Source of the DNA: an uncultured virus (IMG/VR IMGVR_UViG_3300017714_000002)
Lineage: Duplodnaviria > Heunggongvirae > Uroviricota > Caudoviricetes
IMG/VR virus record: IMGVR_UViG_3300017714_000002
DNA: 20,000 nucleotides
Strand: one strand, 5' to 3'
Made by a program: the position numbers and the translations under genes. Under the pieces are notes generated by a model. The model was given only the letters and a program-made list of their open reading frames with translations. It did not search any database and was not told where the DNA came from. Below, piece by piece: positions 8,491-18,981 of the stretch (its first letter is position 1; each line of letters starts with the position of its first letter).

Positions 8491-10812
8491 ATGATGACAG
8501 CAATAAAAACAATAATCAAAAAAAGAGATGGTACAGAAGAAGAACTTGACCTTGAGAAGATGCATAAGGTTGTATTTTACGCCTGCGAAAATATTACAGG
8601 TGTAAGTGCTAGTGAAGTAGAAATTAAAAGTCACTTACAATTTTATAATGGAATTGAGAGTGCAGATATTCAAGAAACATTAATTAAAGCGGCGGCTGAT
8701 CTTATATCAGAAGAAACACCAAATTATCAATGGGTAGCTGGTAGACTTATTAACTACCATTTACGTAAACAAGTTTATGATAAATTTGAACCACCACATT
8801 TACGAGAGATAGCTCGTATGAATGTTGATCGTGGTTTATATGATCCAGAATTTTTTTCTGCTTATGATGAAAATGAAATTAATCAAATGGAAGAGTTTAT
8901 TAAACATGAACGTGATGAAGATATGACATATGCGGCCATGGAACAATTTCGTGGAAAGTATCTAGTACAAAATAGAGCAACAGGTGAAATATTTGAAACA
9001 CCACAAGTATGTTATATGATGATTTCAGCAACATTGTTTAGTCAATATCCAAAAGAAGAAAGAATGAAATGGGTTAAAGATTACTATGACGCAATTAGTA
9101 ATTTTGATATTAGTTTGCCTACGCCAGTAATGGCAGGTGTACGTACACCACAAAGACAATTCTCTTCTTGCGTTCTAGTAGAAACTGATGACGATTTAGA
9201 TAGTATTAATGCTACATCATCTGCTATTGTAAAATATGTTTCACAGAAAGCAGGTATTGGTATTGGCGGTGGTTCTATTCGTGCCATTGGTTCAAAAATT
9301 AGAAACGGTGATGCAACACATACAGGTGTTATTCCTTTTTATAAATTATTTCAAAGTTCAGTCAAGTCATGTAGTCAAGGTGGTGTTCGTGGTGGAGCGG
9401 CTACGTTATACTATCCTATTTGGCACTTAGAAGTTGAAGACTTGCTTGTACTTAAAAATAATAAAGGTACAGAAGATAATCGTGTAAGACATATGGATTA
9501 TGGCGTACAGTTTAATAAATTAATGTATGAACGTTTACTTACAAATGGTAATATTACACTTTTCTCACCTGCAGATGTTCCAGGCTTATATGATGCATTT
9601 TTTGCTGATCAAGATAAGTTTAAAGAAATATATGAGAAAGCTGAAAAGAAAACTGGAATTAGAAAAAAAGTTCTTAAAGCATCTGAGTTATTTGGAATGT
9701 TTATGGAAGAACGTAAAAATACAGGAAGAGTTTATTTGATGAATGTAGATCATGCTAATTCGCATGGTTCGTTCAAGCCTGAACTAGCACCTATTAAACA
9801 AAGTAACTTATGTTGTGAAATTAATTTACCTACTAAACCTTTGTATAGTGTTAGAGACAAAGAAGGTGAAATTAGTTTATGTACGTTAAGTGCAATCAAT
9901 TGGGGAAATATTAGTGAACCTAGTAAGTTTAAAAAAGTTTGTAAATTAGCAGTACGTGGATTAGATGCATTATTAGACTATCAACAATATCCAGTATTAG
10001 CGGCAGAATTAAGCACAATGAAACGTAGACCATTAGGTATAGGTATTATTAACTTTGCATATTGGTTAGCAAAAAATGATTTAACATATCAGAATATTGG
10101 CAAACGTGGATTAGCTAAAGTAGACGAATGGGCAGAAGCTTGGAGTTATTACTTAATAGAAGCAAGTGTAGAACTTGCAGAAGAATATGGACCAATAACT
10201 GGTACAGGTGAAACAAGATACGGTGATGGTATTACACCTAATATGACATACAAAAAAGAATTAGATGAACTAGTACCACATAAAGAACGTATGCCTTGGG
10301 AAGAACTACGTGAAAGATTAAGAAATAGTGGTATTCGTAACAGTACATTAATGGCTCTTATGCCTGCTGAAACGTCAGCACAAATAAGCAATAGTACTAA
10401 CGGTATTGAGCCACCACGTGCATTTGTAAGTGTAAAGCAATCAAAACATGGTGTTTTGAAACAGGTTGTACCTGGATATGCACGTCTAAAGAATAAATAT
10501 GATCTACTATGGACTCAAAAAAGTCCAGAAGGTTATTTAAAGATTATGGCCGTTCTCCAGAAGTATATTGATCAGGGCATATCGGTAAATACAAGTTATA
10601 ACCCGGAGTTTTTTCCAGACGAGAAGATTCCATTAAGTGTTATGCTACAACATCTTGTAATGTTTTACAAGTACGGTGGTAAACAGTTGTATTATTTTAA
10701 TACATATGATGGTCAAGGTGAGATTGAATTTAAAAGCAAACCACTTAAAGGCCGTGAAGACTTTGAATCAGATGAACAGTACGACGACTATTGTGAAAGT
10801 TGCGTAATTTAG
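8491..10812 (+). CDS. nrdA: ribonucleoside-diphosphate reductase class Ia alpha subunit
   Basis: ATP cone (KRDG), SLPTPVMAG, QFSSCVL, SCSQGGVRGG, QSNLCCEI, LMPAETSAQ, KQLYY, C-terminal CESC. AGGA RBS at 8485-8488 favours ATG 8491/8494 over TTG 8476. Confidence 0.98.
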   Translation: MMTAIKTIIKKRDGTEEELDLEKMHKVVFYACENITGVSASEVEIKSHLQFYNGIESADIQETLIKAAADLISEETPNYQWVAGRLINYHLRKQVYDKFEPPHLREIARMNVDRGLYDPEFFSAYDENEINQMEEFIKHERDEDMTYAAMEQFRGKYLVQNRATGEIFETPQVCYMMISATLFSQYPKEERMKWVKDYYDAISNFDISLPTPVMAGVRTPQRQFSSCVLVETDDDLDSINATSSAIVKYVSQKAGIGIGGGSIRAIGSKIRNGDATHTGVIPFYKLFQSSVKSCSQGGVRGGAATLYYPIWHLEVEDLLVLKNNKGTEDNRVRHMDYGVQFNKLMYERLLTNGNITLFSPADVPGLYDAFFADQDKFKEIYEKAEKKTGIRKKVLKASELFGMFMEERKNTGRVYLMNVDHANSHGSFKPELAPIKQSNLCCEINLPTKPLYSVRDKEGEISLCTLSAINWGNISEPSKFKKVCKLAVRGLDALLDYQQYPVLAAELSTMKRRPLGIGIINFAYWLAKNDLTYQNIGKRGLAKVDEWAEAWSYYLIEASVELAEEYGPITGTGETRYGDGITPNMTYKKELDELVPHKERMPWEELRERLRNSGIRNSTLMALMPAETSAQISNSTNGIEPPRAFVSVKQSKHGVLKQVVPGYARLKNKYDLLWTQKSPEGYLKIMAVLQKYIDQGISVNTSYNPEFFPDEKIPLSVMLQHLVMFYKYGGKQLYYFNTYDGQGEIEFKSKPLKGREDFESDEQYDDYCESCVI

Positions 10813-12984: not shown

Positions 12985-14709
12985 ATGAGTGTAGGTGATT
13001 TTAAAGACGGTTTAGAAGATTTTAATGATTATATCAACGGAACCAAAGTTGACATACCAACTGGTCAAGTTGATGTAGATGTTAATGATGGCACAATCAC
13101 CGCACAAACTCAAGCATACAGTTTAAAAGAAATTATTTGTAGTTTACTAGCAGGTAACGGAATTAAGTTACCTAATTTACAAATATGTTTAAAAGTAAAT
13201 CTTGGTAGACTAATACCAGAAATTCCAGAAGCACTAGCAGATCTAAGAGGAGCATTAGAAGATGCTGAAAAAGCTCTTGATGATTTTATAGCACACACAA
13301 ATATTGATAATGCATTAGGTAGATTAAATTCTGCCGTTGCTGAATTTGCGGCCATTGCAAATATGATTAACTTCTGTGGTACACCAGTTGTTCCACGTGC
13401 TATTCCAAATGTTCTTAGAGATGCAATGGGTAGTTTTGTAGGAGCAGGTAAAGATATACTTGACACACTAGGAACTATGGCAGACGGTGACATAGGTGGC
13501 TGTATAGGAACTGATGGGAAATTTAATCCAAATTTATTTACGAGTGGTATCTTAAAACGTCTAGGTGATCAAGTTGGCAATCTTGCTAACTTACCAGCTA
13601 ACATTCAACAAGGATTAATTGATGATTTAAATGCTTTTAAAACTGATATGGAAAACTTAATTGAATTTGAAAATAATTTTAAAGGTTCAAGTTCAACAGG
13701 TGGAAGTATATTTGCTCCTACAAATAGAGTAAACACAAATGTTGGTGTAGCAGTAGATAACGAAAATATGACACTAGCAAAAAGTCAACAATATGCTAGT
13801 AATTTACAATCATTGTATAACAGTTTAAAAGCATACGAAGTAGATGAAGCAGGAAATAATATATTTGCATATCTACTTGAACCAGAACTATTAGCAAAAT
13901 TAGAAAACGACGGTGCTCCTACAGTAGCACTAGCAGAAAGACAACCAATATATGATCATTGTGGTAGAGTAACAGGCTATACACAAAGAAGTATTCAAGC
14001 AGTACAAGAAACAAGTGTAGGTGATCCAGAACAAACTAATACACAACCAGGCTTGGCAGGATTAGCTGAAAGTGGTACAGTAGTTACATCATCACCTGCT
14101 ACAACAACAAATTTAGGTGGCGGCGGTAGCACAAGCTCAGGCTCGTCAGCAAGTTCAGCAAGTGGTGCAATAACAAATACACAATTACAAACAACACTAT
14201 CTAATTATGTAACAAGCACACAATTACAAACAGAATTAGCAAACTATCAACCTTCGATAGATTTGACTCCGTATGCTTTACAAACACAATTATTTTCAGG
14301 CAGTTATATAGATTTAACAAATAAACCAAACTTATTTGATGGAAACTATAATAGCCTAACTAACTTACCAACTATTCCAACAGACCTAAGCCAGCTAACA
14401 GATAATAATAATTTACTGTCAAGTGGTGGCGGTGGAAGTTATCCAACAAACCCAACATTTACAAGTGTAACAACAAATAATTTTACAGTCACAGGTACAG
14501 GCAACATAGTACTCGCAAGTGGTAATAACTTATCACTAACTGCAACACAAAGAGTAGAAGTAACAGGAAAGGTGCCAATGAAACTTGCAACAATGACAAC
14601 AGTAGAAAGAAATCAAATATCATCACCTGAAAGTGGCGATATGATTTATAATACTGATATTAACAAGTTTCAAGGTTACGCCAATAATGCGTGGGTAGAT
14701 TTAAATTGA
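12985..14709 (+). CDS. virion structural / tail fibre-like protein
   Basis: Helical N-domain, Gly/Ser linker, TQLQT-x-L-x-NY repeat, FSGSYIDLTNKP / FDGNYNSLTNLPTIP fibre repeats, C-terminal T-x-x-ERN...GDMIYNTD..KFQGY...W domain common in phage fibres. Confidence 0.75.
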   Translation: MSVGDFKDGLEDFNDYINGTKVDIPTGQVDVDVNDGTITAQTQAYSLKEIICSLLAGNGIKLPNLQICLKVNLGRLIPEIPEALADLRGALEDAEKALDDFIAHTNIDNALGRLNSAVAEFAAIANMINFCGTPVVPRAIPNVLRDAMGSFVGAGKDILDTLGTMADGDIGGCIGTDGKFNPNLFTSGILKRLGDQVGNLANLPANIQQGLIDDLNAFKTDMENLIEFENNFKGSSSTGGSIFAPTNRVNTNVGVAVDNENMTLAKSQQYASNLQSLYNSLKAYEVDEAGNNIFAYLLEPELLAKLENDGAPTVALAERQPIYDHCGRVTGYTQRSIQAVQETSVGDPEQTNTQPGLAGLAESGTVVTSSPATTTNLGGGGSTSSGSSASSASGAITNTQLQTTLSNYVTSTQLQTELANYQPSIDLTPYALQTQLFSGSYIDLTNKPNLFDGNYNSLTNLPTIPTDLSQLTDNNNLLSSGGGGSYPTNPTFTSVTTNNFTVTGTGNIVLASGNNLSLTATQRVEVTGKVPMKLATMTTVERNQISSPESGDMIYNTDINKFQGYANNAWVDLN

Positions 14710-17062: not shown

Positions 17063-17271
17063 TGGGCGACGATTTAGATCTTATCAACAGATATGAGAAA
17101 CTAGCTAATGATATTAATGATATATATCAGAAGTCAGAAGATCTTATAGGAACTTACACTTATGATGATGAAAGAGATACCTTCATTGATCCCTGGTCAA
17201 AGTTAGAAGATGTACTTGGAGTAGATATATTACTGCAAGTGGCAAAGGTTAATAGACAAGTTCAAGACTGA
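17062..17271 (+). CDS. small acidic hypothetical protein
   Basis: GTG start overlapping the previous TAG; fills the gap before the tRNAs. Confidence 0.6.
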   Translation: MGDDLDLINRYEKLANDINDIYQKSEDLIGTYTYDDERDTFIDPWSKLEDVLGVDILLQVAKVNRQVQD

Positions 17272-17272
17272 A

Positions 17273-17279
17273 CTAAATA
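17273..17279 (+). promoter_or_regulatory. variant late promoter CTAAATA before tRNA-Thr
   Basis: TAAATA core ending 7 nt before the tRNA 5' end; a second CTAAATA is at 17601-17607. Confidence 0.45.
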
Positions 17280-17286
17280 AAATTAT

Positions 17287-17362
17287 GCCGTTATAGCTCA
17301 GCTGGTAGAGCAACTGATTTGTAATCAGTAGGTCCGCGGTTCGAATCCGTGTAACGGCACCA
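17287..17362 (+). tRNA. tRNA-Thr(TGT)
   Basis: Acceptor GCCGTTA/TAACGGC, anticodon arm ACTGA-TTTGTAA-TCAGT, GGTTCGAATCC, encoded CCA; 76 nt. Confidence 0.97.
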
Positions 17363-17372
17363 TTAAGTATTT

Positions 17373-17457
17373 GCCCTTGTGGTGGAATTGGTAGACACGC
17401 AGGTCTTAGGAACCTGTGTCGCAAGACGTGAGAGTTCGAGTCTCTCCGAGGGCACCA
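17373..17457 (+). tRNA. tRNA-Leu(TAG)
   Basis: Acceptor GCCCTTG/CGAGGGC, CAGGT-CTTAGGA-ACCTG, long variable arm GTCGCAAGAC, encoded CCA; 85 nt. Confidence 0.97.
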
Positions 17458-17460
17458 AAT

Positions 17461-17590
17461 CGGGTTGTGCCGTAATACACACGTTTAACACTCACGGTTA
17501 AGTGTTAAGGACATATAACTAAAATAAAATACACACAAAGGATATTACAGGACAGGGCCCTTTTGAAACAAAGCCCAACGCAGGACATAC
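17461..17590 (+). ncRNA. candidate structured ncRNA downstream of tRNA-Leu
   Basis: No long ORF; hairpins at 17461-17483, 17485-17508 and 17555-17576; loops CCGT/ACGG are complementary; repeated AGGA motifs. Family not recognised. Confidence 0.45.
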
Positions 17591-17698
17591 AAAACAAAGA
17601 CTAAATATAAAGAAGTACAAAATTACAAGAAGTAAATGAATAACATTGGAGTAAGCACTCAAGTAGGTTTATAGACGGTGTAGCTAGGAAAGGAATTT

Positions 17699-17905
17699 AT
17701 GTTGAAAGAAATAATTTTAGCGGCGGCAAAGAAACACGCAGAAGCAGAAATTGACCTTCATAAAGCTAACATTGAGGTTTATATGAGGCAAGTAGTAGGT
17801 ATTGGCGAACATTCAGACATCGTTGAAACGATCCAAAAAGAGCTAGATAAAATGGCTACTGCACATGACAGACTTGAAATGCTTAACAAATATTTCAAAG
17901 ACTAA
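17699..17905 (+). CDS. small conserved phage protein (VGIGEHSDI motif)
   Basis: AAGGA RBS; helical hairpin with a GIGEHSDI turn, recalled from marine T4-like phages; function unknown. Confidence 0.85.
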   Translation: MLKEIILAAAKKHAEAEIDLHKANIEVYMRQVVGIGEHSDIVETIQKELDKMATAHDRLEMLNKYFKD

Positions 17906-17910
17906 ACTTT

Positions 17911-17943
17911 AGTTAACACATTTAGGTGTGTTAACTTTTTTTT
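17911..17943 (+). terminator. rho-independent terminator
   Basis: AGTTAACACA-TTTAGG-TGTGTTAACT 10 bp stem followed by a T run ending at 17943. Confidence 0.8.
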
Positions 17944-18019
17944 GGGGGATTAGCTCAGTTGGGAGAGCGCCTGATTTGCATTCAGGAGGTCGCAGGTTCG
18001 ATTCCTGTATCCTCCACCA
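17944..18019 (+). tRNA. tRNA-Ala(TGC)
   Basis: Acceptor GGGGGAT/ATCCTCC with the G3:U70 Ala determinant, CCTGA-TTTGCAT-TCAGG, encoded CCA; 76 nt. Confidence 0.97.
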
Positions 18020-18036
18020 TTAAAAAAGAGATTCAT

Positions 18037-18981
18037 ATGGATATAATTATATACCAAAATAATACAGGTTCAGCACCAGCAATTAACTGGTGGTTATCAC
18101 AAGAATTAAACATAGGTCCAGAACTATATGCATTTAATGATGGGTATTGTAGACCTAGAGGACATCACGTAGGCGGTGTATTAATAGAAGATAGTCAATC
18201 GCCTTATCATGAAAAACATAGAAAATCATTAACACTACTAGAAACAACAAATCAACAGCCTAGCAATGTACCGCAGAGTGTTGTAGTAAATGGAAAACTA
18301 GTTAAGCACAATCCAGCCCATGAAGGAACTATTGATGTAACAAAACCTTTTATTAAAGATAAAAGTAAATTTGATTATTTTGTTTGGAGTAACTATGGCG
18401 GCAATTTAGTTAATCCAGAAACTATAATCAAAGCAGACAAAACTTTATTAGTTGATAATAGTGTTGAAGAACAGATGTTTTTTTATATAAGCCAGTATGC
18501 ATTCGCTTGGATTGAAACTCCAGATGATATTATTGAACAAACTGAATCATGGATACAAGAACATACCAGTGTTGAAAATTGGAAAGAAGTTTGGTATAAA
18601 AAATATCATGATGCTATGTTACGTAGATGGAAAGATGGAGATTTAAAATATATGTGGCAATTAAATTTTGCTCATAACGATTTAAGAACTGCATTAGAAA
18701 ATGGTAAAGATGATATTGATTTTATTGATGCAGAAGATCATAAAAGACTATTTGAAGTAAAAAGCCAAGAAGCAGATTTTACAGAAACACTTTTCTCATA
18801 TACAAATAAAGAAATAGATCATATTGTTGTTGGAGATGACTGGTTTACTAAAACAGAAGACATTATGGCATATTTGGGAATAGTTAATTCTTTTAGACTA
18901 AAAAAATATTTAATTGATTATATTAAAGTATATAAACAGAAAAAACAGTTATATACAGAAACATTTTCACAATATCTATAA
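18037..18981 (+). CDS. hypothetical protein (314 aa)
   Basis: Start corrected to ATG 18037 because the ORF-track start lies inside tRNA-Ala. Confidence 0.8.
   Translation: MDIIIYQNNTGSAPAINWWLSQELNIGPELYAFNDGYCRPRGHHVGGVLIEDSQSPYHEKHRKSLTLLETTNQQPSNVPQSVVVNGKLVKHNPAHEGTIDVTKPFIKDKSKFDYFVWSNYGGNLVNPETIIKADKTLLVDNSVEEQMFFYISQYAFAWIETPDDIIEQTESWIQEHTSVENWKEVWYKKYHDAMLRRWKDGDLKYMWQLNFAHNDLRTALENGKDDIDFIDAEDHKRLFEVKSQEADFTETLFSYTNKEIDHIVVGDDWFTKTEDIMAYLGIVNSFRLKKYLIDYIKVYKQKKQLYTETFSQYL

Follow-up and report, generated by a model that had tools for sequence, protein, structure and literature searches.

The window analyzed here, a stretch of 20,000 nt, is a 20-kb part of a 42.9-kb viral contig of IMG/VR (IMGVR_UViG_3300017714_000002; CheckV completeness estimate, 12%), and its genes lie on the + strand throughout. 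Within it, a tRNA-Thr gene (17287-17362) and a tRNA-Leu(TAG) gene with a CCA end (17373-17457, +; found by ARAGORN, and scoring 56.2 bits with the Rfam tRNA model) are followed, after a 3-nt spacer (AAT, 17458-17460, +), by a compact element at 17461-17508 in the same transcript orientation. This element opens a gap of 241 nt between tRNA-Leu and an open reading frame (ORF) of 68 aa (17699-17905, +; phrog_1811, unknown function), which starts 190 nt beyond the end of the element and is succeeded by an intrinsic terminator (17911-17936) and a tRNA-Ala gene (17944-18019). The element at 17461-17508 is the subject of this report. It proved to be one copy of a phage-borne RNA family, and covariation among the members supports a small predicted pseudoknot followed by a hairpin.

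A preliminary description of the locus, drawn up from the sequence alone, had placed two adjacent hairpins with complementary, kissing loops at 17461-17508. Its coordinates and letters were all correct, as were the gap of ~240 nt at the element and the statement that the element is richer in G+C (0.438) than its flanks (0.337 in the rest of the gap, 0.338 in the window). It had also rightly noted that the element is no cloverleaf, with ARAGORN and the Rfam tRNA model finding only the four tRNAs of the window, and that no U-tract follows, hairpin 2 being succeeded by GGACATATAAC. Hairpin 2, with its A+T-rich stem and no U-tract, was absent from the list of intrinsic terminators obtained by a scan of the window.

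The window sequence by itself displayed no feature beyond chance, and support for the element comes only from its relatives. The minimum free energy of 17458-17520 (−10.5 kcal/mol) was that of shuffled sequences (−10.34 ± 2.49; z = −0.06), 85 of 200 of which folded as well or better, and the fold predicted from the single sequence lacked hairpin 1 as it had been drawn. For two random 8-nt loops, the probability of a Watson-Crick match of at least 4 nt is ~0.10. Perfect 8-bp hairpins occurred 14 times in the window vs 4.1 times in shuffles.

Among close relatives, a 26-mer across both hairpins was found exactly in six viral contigs, and the identity of the 241-nt gap was 100% in four contigs and 79.7% in two others. 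The element itself was 100% identical in L005 and L007 despite a 20-nt indel and many substitutions directly 3′ of it; in L120, it was unchanged except for one T missing in the linker, and the adjoining 3′ DNA had diverged. Because of this identity, the nearest relatives gave no readable covariation. In contig L142, which is syntenic but diverged, the copy has diverged as well and stands before rather than behind tRNA-Leu, after the phrog_1811 ORF. Stem 1 of this copy reads TGCT/AGCA, GGGC/GCCC forms the core of stem 2, loop 2 shows no change, and loop 1 is ACTTAATA, with ACTT at the position of the window's CCGT. The L142 copy gave the first sign of compensatory change and also the first evidence against a putative CCGT:ACGG kiss.

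A degenerate pattern was derived from the features common to the window lineage and the L142 lineage. It matched at least 120 loci in metagenome contigs, and three further patterns, each leaving a different part of the motif free, matched at least 119-120 loci apiece in viral contigs. The matches listed provided 146 unique motif sequences flanked by 40 nt or more; genomic contexts were counted at the 119 metagenome loci among the matches listed (hereafter, listed loci). Chance-like matches (L194, L320, L375, L423, L479, L507, L508, and L544) were set aside. Homologues with conserved loops and covarying stems, which the preliminary description had named as the test of its proposal, were found in this way.

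In a 100-row alignment (A3) consisting of the window, L142, and 98 unique metagenome members, standard pairs filled 93.7% of cells vs 71.0% in shuffles, with none of 500 shuffles reaching the observed value. The covariation score was 0.683, vs 0.227 in shuffles and 0.108-0.175 in slid controls. Both stems of the two adjacent hairpins covary in the family, but the first appears to belong to a small pseudoknot and not to a bulged hairpin. Since C17461 covaries with the loop-1 base G17472, the comparison shows hairpin 1 as a predicted H-type pseudoknot that is followed by hairpin 2. Stem S1 is formed by CGG (17461-17463; alignment columns 6-8) and CCG (17470-17472, within the former loop 1), and stem S2 by TGTG (17466-17469) and CACA (17478-17481), all on the + strand. 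TGTG is the stem drawn for hairpin 1 in the preliminary description, where CCGTAATA between TGTG and CACA was the loop. Loop L1 is GT (17464-17465, +), inside a near-invariant GGGTTG, and loop L3 is TAATA (17473-17477, +). A linker CGT (17482-17484, +), whose CG is conserved also in the cultured phage Melnitz, leads to hairpin 2 (17485-17508, +), which has an 8-bp A+T-rich stem (TTAACACT, 17485-17492, with AGTGTTAA, 17501-17508) and an 8-nt loop conserved in the family (CACGGTTA, 17493-17500). The outer CG:CG pairs drawn earlier (17461-17462 with 17482-17483) found no support; C17461 and G17462 pair instead with G17472 and C17471.

Pair 6-17 (C17461-G17472) was standard in 97 of 100 rows and took four Watson-Crick types (AU 40, CG 31, GC 21, UA 4, GU 1, other 3). 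Its mutual information of 1.42 bits was the highest of any true pair, and in an independent scan that left loop 1 free it was Watson-Crick in 66 of 68 cases. Pair 7-16 (G17462-C17471) was GC in all 100 rows, and pair 8-15 (G17463-C17470) was GC in 43, with one compensatory A-T variant. Within S2, pairs 13-24 (UA 55, CG 45) and 14-23 (five pair types) were paired in every row; pairs 11-26 and 12-25, otherwise invariant, change compensatorily to G-C and A-T in Melnitz. For hairpin 2, all seven family stem pairs covaried, and 96.0% of cells were paired. Run blind, RNAalifold recovered both hairpins, including S2 pairs 12-25, 13-24, and 14-23 and 7 out of 7 hairpin 2 pairs. G-U pairs were found on the motif strand (UG 22 at pair 38-47, UG 11 at pair 14-23); the fold belongs to this strand, because on the other strand these pairs would be C-A mismatches. 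The motif was shown to begin at the base before GGGTTG and to end at the foot of hairpin 2.

The same comparison bears on the proposed kissing loops. CCGT (17470-17473) is indeed the reverse complement of ACGG (17494-17497), but loop kissing is not conserved. The loop-1 position of G17472 was occupied by T 51, G 41, C 32, and A 4 times (n = 128), and it covaries with the base before GGGTTG and not with loop 2: among the 30 top mutual-information pairs, none joined loop-1 column 17 to a loop-2 column. When left free, loop 2 read CACGG, CATGG, CAAGG, CACAG, or CAACGG, and because of this variation ACGG is not conserved.

Other unpaired bases were kept more strictly. GGGTTG, when left free, was retained in 66 of 79 unique matches; four were chance-like, and the others were single-base variants or had one extra nucleotide in loop 1. 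The scan that left the former loop 1 free gave C at its second position in 68 of 68 cases and TAATA in 50 of 68, and both central A were present in all nine variants (68 of 68). The apical loop of hairpin 2 is conserved as CA-N-GGTTA: in the 146 unique members it was CACGGTTA (86), CATGGTTA (18), CACGGTCA (11), CACGGTAA (6), CAAGGTTA (4), or another sequence (21), loop 2 itself having been free in one scan only. In all, ~25 bases in ~50 are near-fixed. We defined the family by N-GGGTTG, with the first base Watson-Crick to loop-1 position 3, C at loop-1 position 2, a 4-bp second stem, A-A in loop 3, the linker CG, and a hairpin of 6-8 bp capped by CA-N-GGTTA. The window copy has all of these features (C17461-G17472, G17462-C17471, TGTG/CACA, TAATA, CG, an 8-bp stem, and CACGGTTA). 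It is a full member with two oddities, namely the A+T-rich 8-bp stem 2 and the clade-specific tail TTAAGGAC ATATAAC (17505-17519, +), which overlaps the base of hairpin 2 and stands where other members have a T-run or an AAC tail. Two covariance models were used, R1 built from the window element and its close relatives and R2 from the 100 rows, window included. The window element scored 87.7 bits with R1 and, as 1 of 100 training rows, 60.1 bits (E = 1e-17) with R2.

The family is absent from Rfam 15, as the preliminary description had supposed. Against window positions 17200-18100, the sole overlap was with mir-7594 (15.9 bits, gathering score 80, E = 4.3); 12 typical member loci gave nothing at the motif at E ≤ 1; and in Melnitz the tmRNA and the glutamine riboswitch were found, but nothing at the motif. 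Full-text literature searches yielded no description of the motif. A catalogue of 8,495 IMG/VR candidate RNAs has been published (PMC10690425); a string search in the text part of its supplements did not find the motif, which may still be among the 8,495 candidates. We rate the RNA family as new but its general kind as known, that of the orphan structured small RNAs of phage RNA-gene islands.

The family was shown to be restricted to phage-like DNA, that of large aquatic phages. Its members come from hundreds of contigs from seawater and lakes, and the degenerate pattern had 0 matches in 185,579 prokaryote species (one genome each). A model search identified a cultured carrier, the OM43 phage Melnitz (141 kb), with one copy, and no copy in four other Kyanoviridae records (HTVC008M, P-RSM6, AG-345-P14, and MbCM1). 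Blastn with five typical members against 50,697 isolate phage records gave nothing better than E = 0.3. Copy number was 1 in five of five further viral records, three of which are 92-100% complete (204-343 kb), and G000-G003 of the window's clade had one strong model match each. An extra weak match of ~21 bits inside nrdA in three of G000-G003 was attributed to chance: at 10459-10521, 21.6 bits with R1 fell to 12.0 bits with the better model.

In some members, the motif adjoins tRNA or tmRNA genes, which lie on its own strand. At 29 of the 119 listed loci, a same-strand tRNA (Leu, Lys, Met, Ile, Val, or Glu) ended 4-5 nt before GGGTTG, a placement that agrees with the earlier suggestion that tRNA 3′ processing could release the 5′ end of the RNA; of the 146 unique members, 23 had a CCA at a distance of 3-4 nt upstream of the motif. 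A tRNA started within 40 nt after the motif at 18 listed loci. Anywhere in the flanks, same-strand tRNAs were seen at 41 listed loci and opposite-strand ones at none, and 78 had no tRNA in their flanks. L240 and L210 have tRNAs on both sides of the motif, at distances of 4-5 and 6-11 nt; a permuted tmRNA begins immediately downstream of it in L197; and in Melnitz, the order is tmRNA, glutamine riboswitch, motif, and a late-transcription coactivator gene. Upstream ORFs are diverse, and the motif often directly follows a stop codon, e.g. of genes for gp32-like proteins or beta-barrel proteins ending in F. Downstream genes are likewise unrelated (gp33-like, hsp20-like, lysozyme-like, lipoprotein-like, tRNAs, and tmRNA).

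The sequences immediately flanking the motif were also compared. The two bases preceding it are A/T-rich, position −1 being T in 74 and A in 39 of 128 cases. A T-run after hairpin 2 occurred in 49 of the 146 unique members, whereas the window copy shows neither the G+C-rich hairpin nor the U-tract of an intrinsic terminator. TAAATA, which we take to be the core of the T4-type late promoter, ended 4-7 nt before the first motif base in 11 members, 7 of them with a T-run as well; elsewhere in the 40 nt upstream, only 7 further occurrences were found in the 146 members. As a separate candidate, TAATA of loop 3 was considered as a −10 box with an upstream −35 and rejected, fitting only a few loci with TTGACT upstream and not the tRNA contexts.

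Among 26 viral loci with the same tRNA-Leu 3′ half, the element was present in 7 and absent in 19, and among 80 loci around relatives of the phrog_1811 ORF the tRNA pair lay upstream in only 5. The AGGAC tail was found in 6 of the 146 unique members, every one beside tRNA-Leu, and is identical in L005, L120, and L142; a pattern that included the clade-specific TTAAGGAC tail returned only 8 family loci among 34 matches, the remainder being chance-like. The clade keeps the motif and tRNA-Leu(TAG) adjacent in variable order: the motif precedes tRNA-Leu by 13-23 nt in L142, L186, L206, L217, and L276, and follows it by 3-4 nt in the window, L187, L237, L260, and L300. The variable order points to a putative local rearrangement of the RNA-gene island. 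Terminator 17911-17936 and hairpin 2 have the 7-nt arms TTAACAC/GTGTTAA in common, and because of these arms the unusual A+T-rich stem 2 of the window's clade may derive from exchange with the terminator. GTTAACAC, considered as a repeat, occurs four times in the window vs 1.1 expected, and two of these occurrences are the arms of the same terminator.

Assembled contigs from RNA libraries of four studies matched the locus exactly, covering 17429-17978, 17434-17896, 17394-17588, and 17398-17673. In three of the four runs, the junction of tRNA-Leu and motif was bridged by at least 31 nt on both sides. In some runs, part of the stretch had no cover, which is not informative. The contigs suggest, if only weakly, cotranscription of the region with tRNA-Leu and the downstream ORF.

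The explanation we favour, with belief and doubt about evenly matched, is that 17461-17508 is one copy of a self-contained gene for a small stable RNA of ~50-60 nt, which in the window phage would be released from a tRNA transcript. This explanation is preferred because the conserved core is sharply bounded, the neighbours are unrelated, the motif is single-copy, its orientation and spacing in tRNA arrays resemble those of tRNAs, and some copies form promoter-motif-terminator units. In the window phage, the RNA would be transcribed together with tRNA-Thr and tRNA-Leu, and the nucleases that trim the tRNA 3′ trailer would free its 5′ end. In other phages, the motif would be a unit of its own, preceded at 4-7 nt by a late-promoter-like box and closed by a T-run behind hairpin 2. 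Both ends of the RNA would be shielded, the 5′ end by its locked base and the 3′ end by the hairpin. The unpaired bases that do not vary, namely those of the GG-TTA loop, the two A of TAATA, and the CG linker, may form a tertiary core or a surface for a conserved partner. The product would act in trans as a stable small RNA, like the adjoining tRNAs and tmRNA. It is an unlikely further step to see in it a new type of trans-acting effector, tRNA-sized and matured by the tRNA machinery, whose invariant GG-TTA loop and pseudoknot surface would engage a universally conserved host tRNA or ribosome machine or decoy a tRNA-directed defence nuclease.

Several observations weigh against a self-contained RNA gene. 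In the RNA libraries, X1 depth over the element (14.6) was similar to that over the upstream ORF (12.1), and the RNA support consists of assembled contigs, which carry no ends, strand, or level and may include DNA carry-over. Neither a T-run nor an AGGAC tail was present in 91 of the 146 unique members, and with CCA 3-4 nt upstream in only 23 and a promoter-like box at the right distance in 11, these two routes would account for the 5′ end in a minority of members. A start codon follows many members at 10-30 nt, an arrangement that would suit a cis-acting leader as well. Furthermore, the patterns by which the members were found all fix some of the motif: TAATA was left open in a single scan and CACG in none, so that only the match of the model to Melnitz supports its conservation independently. 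Member sequences are also related, and the counts therefore represent non-independent events.

Phage tRNA clusters are known to contain small folded RNAs ever since the T4 species 1 and 2 RNAs (rnaC and rnaD), which are a precedent for a small stable RNA gene at such a site. Like the motif, they are encoded immediately 3′ of a tRNA, in their case the last one of the cluster, in the same orientation and only very few nucleotides away; in the T4 annotation, both stand directly after tRNA-Arg, and rnaD ends 1 nt from tRNA-Arg. They differ in length (119 and 139 nt vs ~50-60 nt), and R2 with filters off returned no rnaC/rnaD homology in T4 69000-74000 (best match 5.6 bits, E = 1). Since the family model finds nothing in this region, rnaC and rnaD are analogues of the motif by placement and not relatives. 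To our knowledge, their function is unknown, as is that of almost every phage tRNA-cluster small RNA.

Instead of encoding a separate RNA, the motif might be a cis-acting module that marks transcript ends or cuts and insulates the flanking RNAs, serving as a terminator where a T-run follows and as a nuclease stop or recognition site in tRNA arrays. We consider this unlikely, though it deserves attention. It would account for the T-run in a third of members, for the A/T-rich bases in front of the motif, and for its frequent position right after the stop codons of diverse genes and 10-30 nt before the next start codon. Yet neither the window copy nor any copy in a tRNA array has a T-run, an ordinary terminator has no need of invariant loops or a pseudoknot, and one copy per genome of 141-343 kb would be odd for a general punctuation signal.

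An improbable alternative is a riboswitch-like or protein-responsive leader, in which the pseudoknot would be the sensor and hairpin 2 a terminator or anti-terminator for the downstream gene. Many members do show the order pseudoknot, hairpin with T-run, and Shine-Dalgarno sequence with ATG within ~10-30 nt. H-type pseudoknots of similar size are also the aptamers of several known riboswitch classes. Aptamers of the preQ1-I type and the T4 gene 32 leader pseudoknot are small H-type pseudoknots with an A-rich third loop, and the predicted 21-nt pseudoknot of the motif, with its short loop 1 and A-containing loop 3, resembles them; the gene 32 leader pseudoknot is mentioned in PMC10690425. Unlike these RNAs, the motif has no sequence likeness to Rfam aptamers, is not tied to a single downstream gene, and is joined to a hairpin with an invariant loop, a loop whose conservation would be unexpected in an expression platform. 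The downstream genes are unrelated, the next ORF in the window is 190 nt away, and in L142 the motif follows that same ORF. No alternative pairing that competes with hairpin 2 was seen.

In hepatitis delta virus (HDV)-like folds, which are nested double pseudoknots, the 5′ strand (P1) pairs with the strand after P3. Theta ribozymes are minimal HDV-like ribozymes which, according to PMC10879173, lie beside gut-phage tRNAs, within ±5 nt, and are proposed to process 3′ trailers. It is very improbable that the motif is their aquatic counterpart, a new small self-cleaving ribozyme cutting just 5′ of its first base and trimming the tRNA 3′ trailer. Both are small, highly conserved, pseudoknotted, and a few bases from a phage tRNA 3′ end; the theta distance of ~5 nt is matched in the window (3 nt) and at 29 of the listed loci, as a feature of placement only. 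A ribozyme would also suit the unvarying distance (3-4 nt) from the CCA of six tRNA types at these loci, the compact pseudoknot that includes the very first base, and the many invariant unpaired bases. The predicted fold is nevertheless not HDV-like, as the 5′ strand (columns 6-8) finds its partner in columns 15-17, within the first stem's loop, rather than behind P3, and no ribozyme family of Rfam, HDV-type or other, matches. In contrast to theta ribozymes, the motif lies mostly away from tRNAs (78 listed loci), and its phages are aquatic and not those of the gut. Where a promoter-like box lies 4-7 nt upstream, as in 11 of the 146, almost nothing would be left for a ribozyme to remove. The RNA-library contigs that bridge the junction of tRNA-Leu and motif also speak against cleavage, if weakly, as they may stem from DNA or precursor.

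A signal at the DNA level, in which single-stranded DNA hairpins would form a recombination, replication, or mobile-element site, is highly improbable. The single copy per genome would fit such a signal, as would the clade's motif on either side of tRNA-Leu and its absence from 19 of 26 tRNA-Leu loci, as if it had moved. Against it stand the invariable co-orientation with neighbouring tRNA genes (none of the listed loci opposite), G-U pairs tolerated on one strand only, and a terminator-like T-run in a third of members; no direct repeats or recombinase gene were noticed, in the course of an analysis without a systematic search for them.

The guanidine-II riboswitch (mini-ykkC) consists of two hairpins, each with an ACGR tetraloop, that interact through kissing loops. 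The motif recalls it in having two adjacent small hairpins and ACGG in loop 2 of the window copy, but its loops are 8 nt long and not tetraloops, loop 1 is N-C-N-TAATA without ACGR, ACGG is unconserved, loop-loop covariation is absent, and no Rfam family matches. Two independent hairpins kissing via CCGT:ACGG, a 4-nt complementarity present in the window and in members whose loop 1 starts with CCG, are hardly credible given the frequency of such matches by chance, the covariation of G17472 with C17461, the ACT, ACC, CCT, CCA, or other sequence of loop 1 in most members, and the alternative forms of loop 2.

The family combines unusual properties, being abundant, strictly phage-borne, single-copy in genomes of 141-343 kb, and very strongly conserved for its size. 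If it encodes the effector considered above, it would be an RNA-based host-takeover or anti-defence factor common to T4-like and jumbo aquatic phages, and a trans-acting effector or a catalytic RNA would alike constitute a new RNA class for phage biology. If the motif merely forms transcript ends, its recognition would still improve annotation, e.g. of a probably spurious reverse-strand ORF over the motif in Melnitz. As the predicted pseudoknot is well supported and Melnitz is a cultured carrier, function can be tested directly.

The Melnitz ORF in question is the hypothetical coding sequence (CDS) Melnitz3EXVC039M_89, which lies at 46492-46593 in Melnitz-3 (MZ577098.1; L430 1493-1594, minus strand) and on the opposite strand overlaps the motif (46556-46617). 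This CDS is probably not a gene. In ten contigs (L193, L235, L268, L279, L288, L294, L309, L311, L403, and L526), the late-promoter-like sequence ATAAATAAA was seen 10-40 nt after the motif, and next, before an hsp20-like ORF, came a second conserved hairpin, GGATGCCAAT..GGGTCC. This hairpin is a candidate for a further uncatalogued leader element.

In many members that lack a T-run, hairpin 2 is directly followed by AAC or CAAC, which is complementary to GTT(G) of the 5′ GGGTTG. In Melnitz, CAACCCT lies 5 nt further on, and the window copy has no such AAC. AAC/CAAC may form an extra closing helix or an alternative fold. The GG-TT stretches presumably resemble a strand of a 16S rRNA helix and the tRNA D-loop over 5-7 bases, a likeness on which we do not rely.

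A second conserved block in the spacer of the window (17533-17595, +), kept in L005, L007, and L120, is regarded as context rather than as part of the motif. AGGAC occurs in the window at 17508-17512, 17549-17553, and 17582-17586, and GGGC (17555-17558) lies opposite GCCC (17573-17576). Relatives without the motif (L089, L091, L100, and L122-L141) have a related two-hairpin block right after the tRNA, with A-N-GGA within a hairpin loop, and then TAGGAAATACAAA. This GGA-in-loop design recalls binding sites of the CsrA/RsmA type. AGGA(A/C)ATA(C/T)AA was rejected as a genome-wide promoter or repeat, with only 0-3 occurrences per record in five records. Elsewhere in the window, an ORF of 574 aa (12985-14709), for which neither PHROG nor a tblastn search of isolate phages gave a match, contains a tandem 39-nt direct repeat (79% identity) at 14171-14247.

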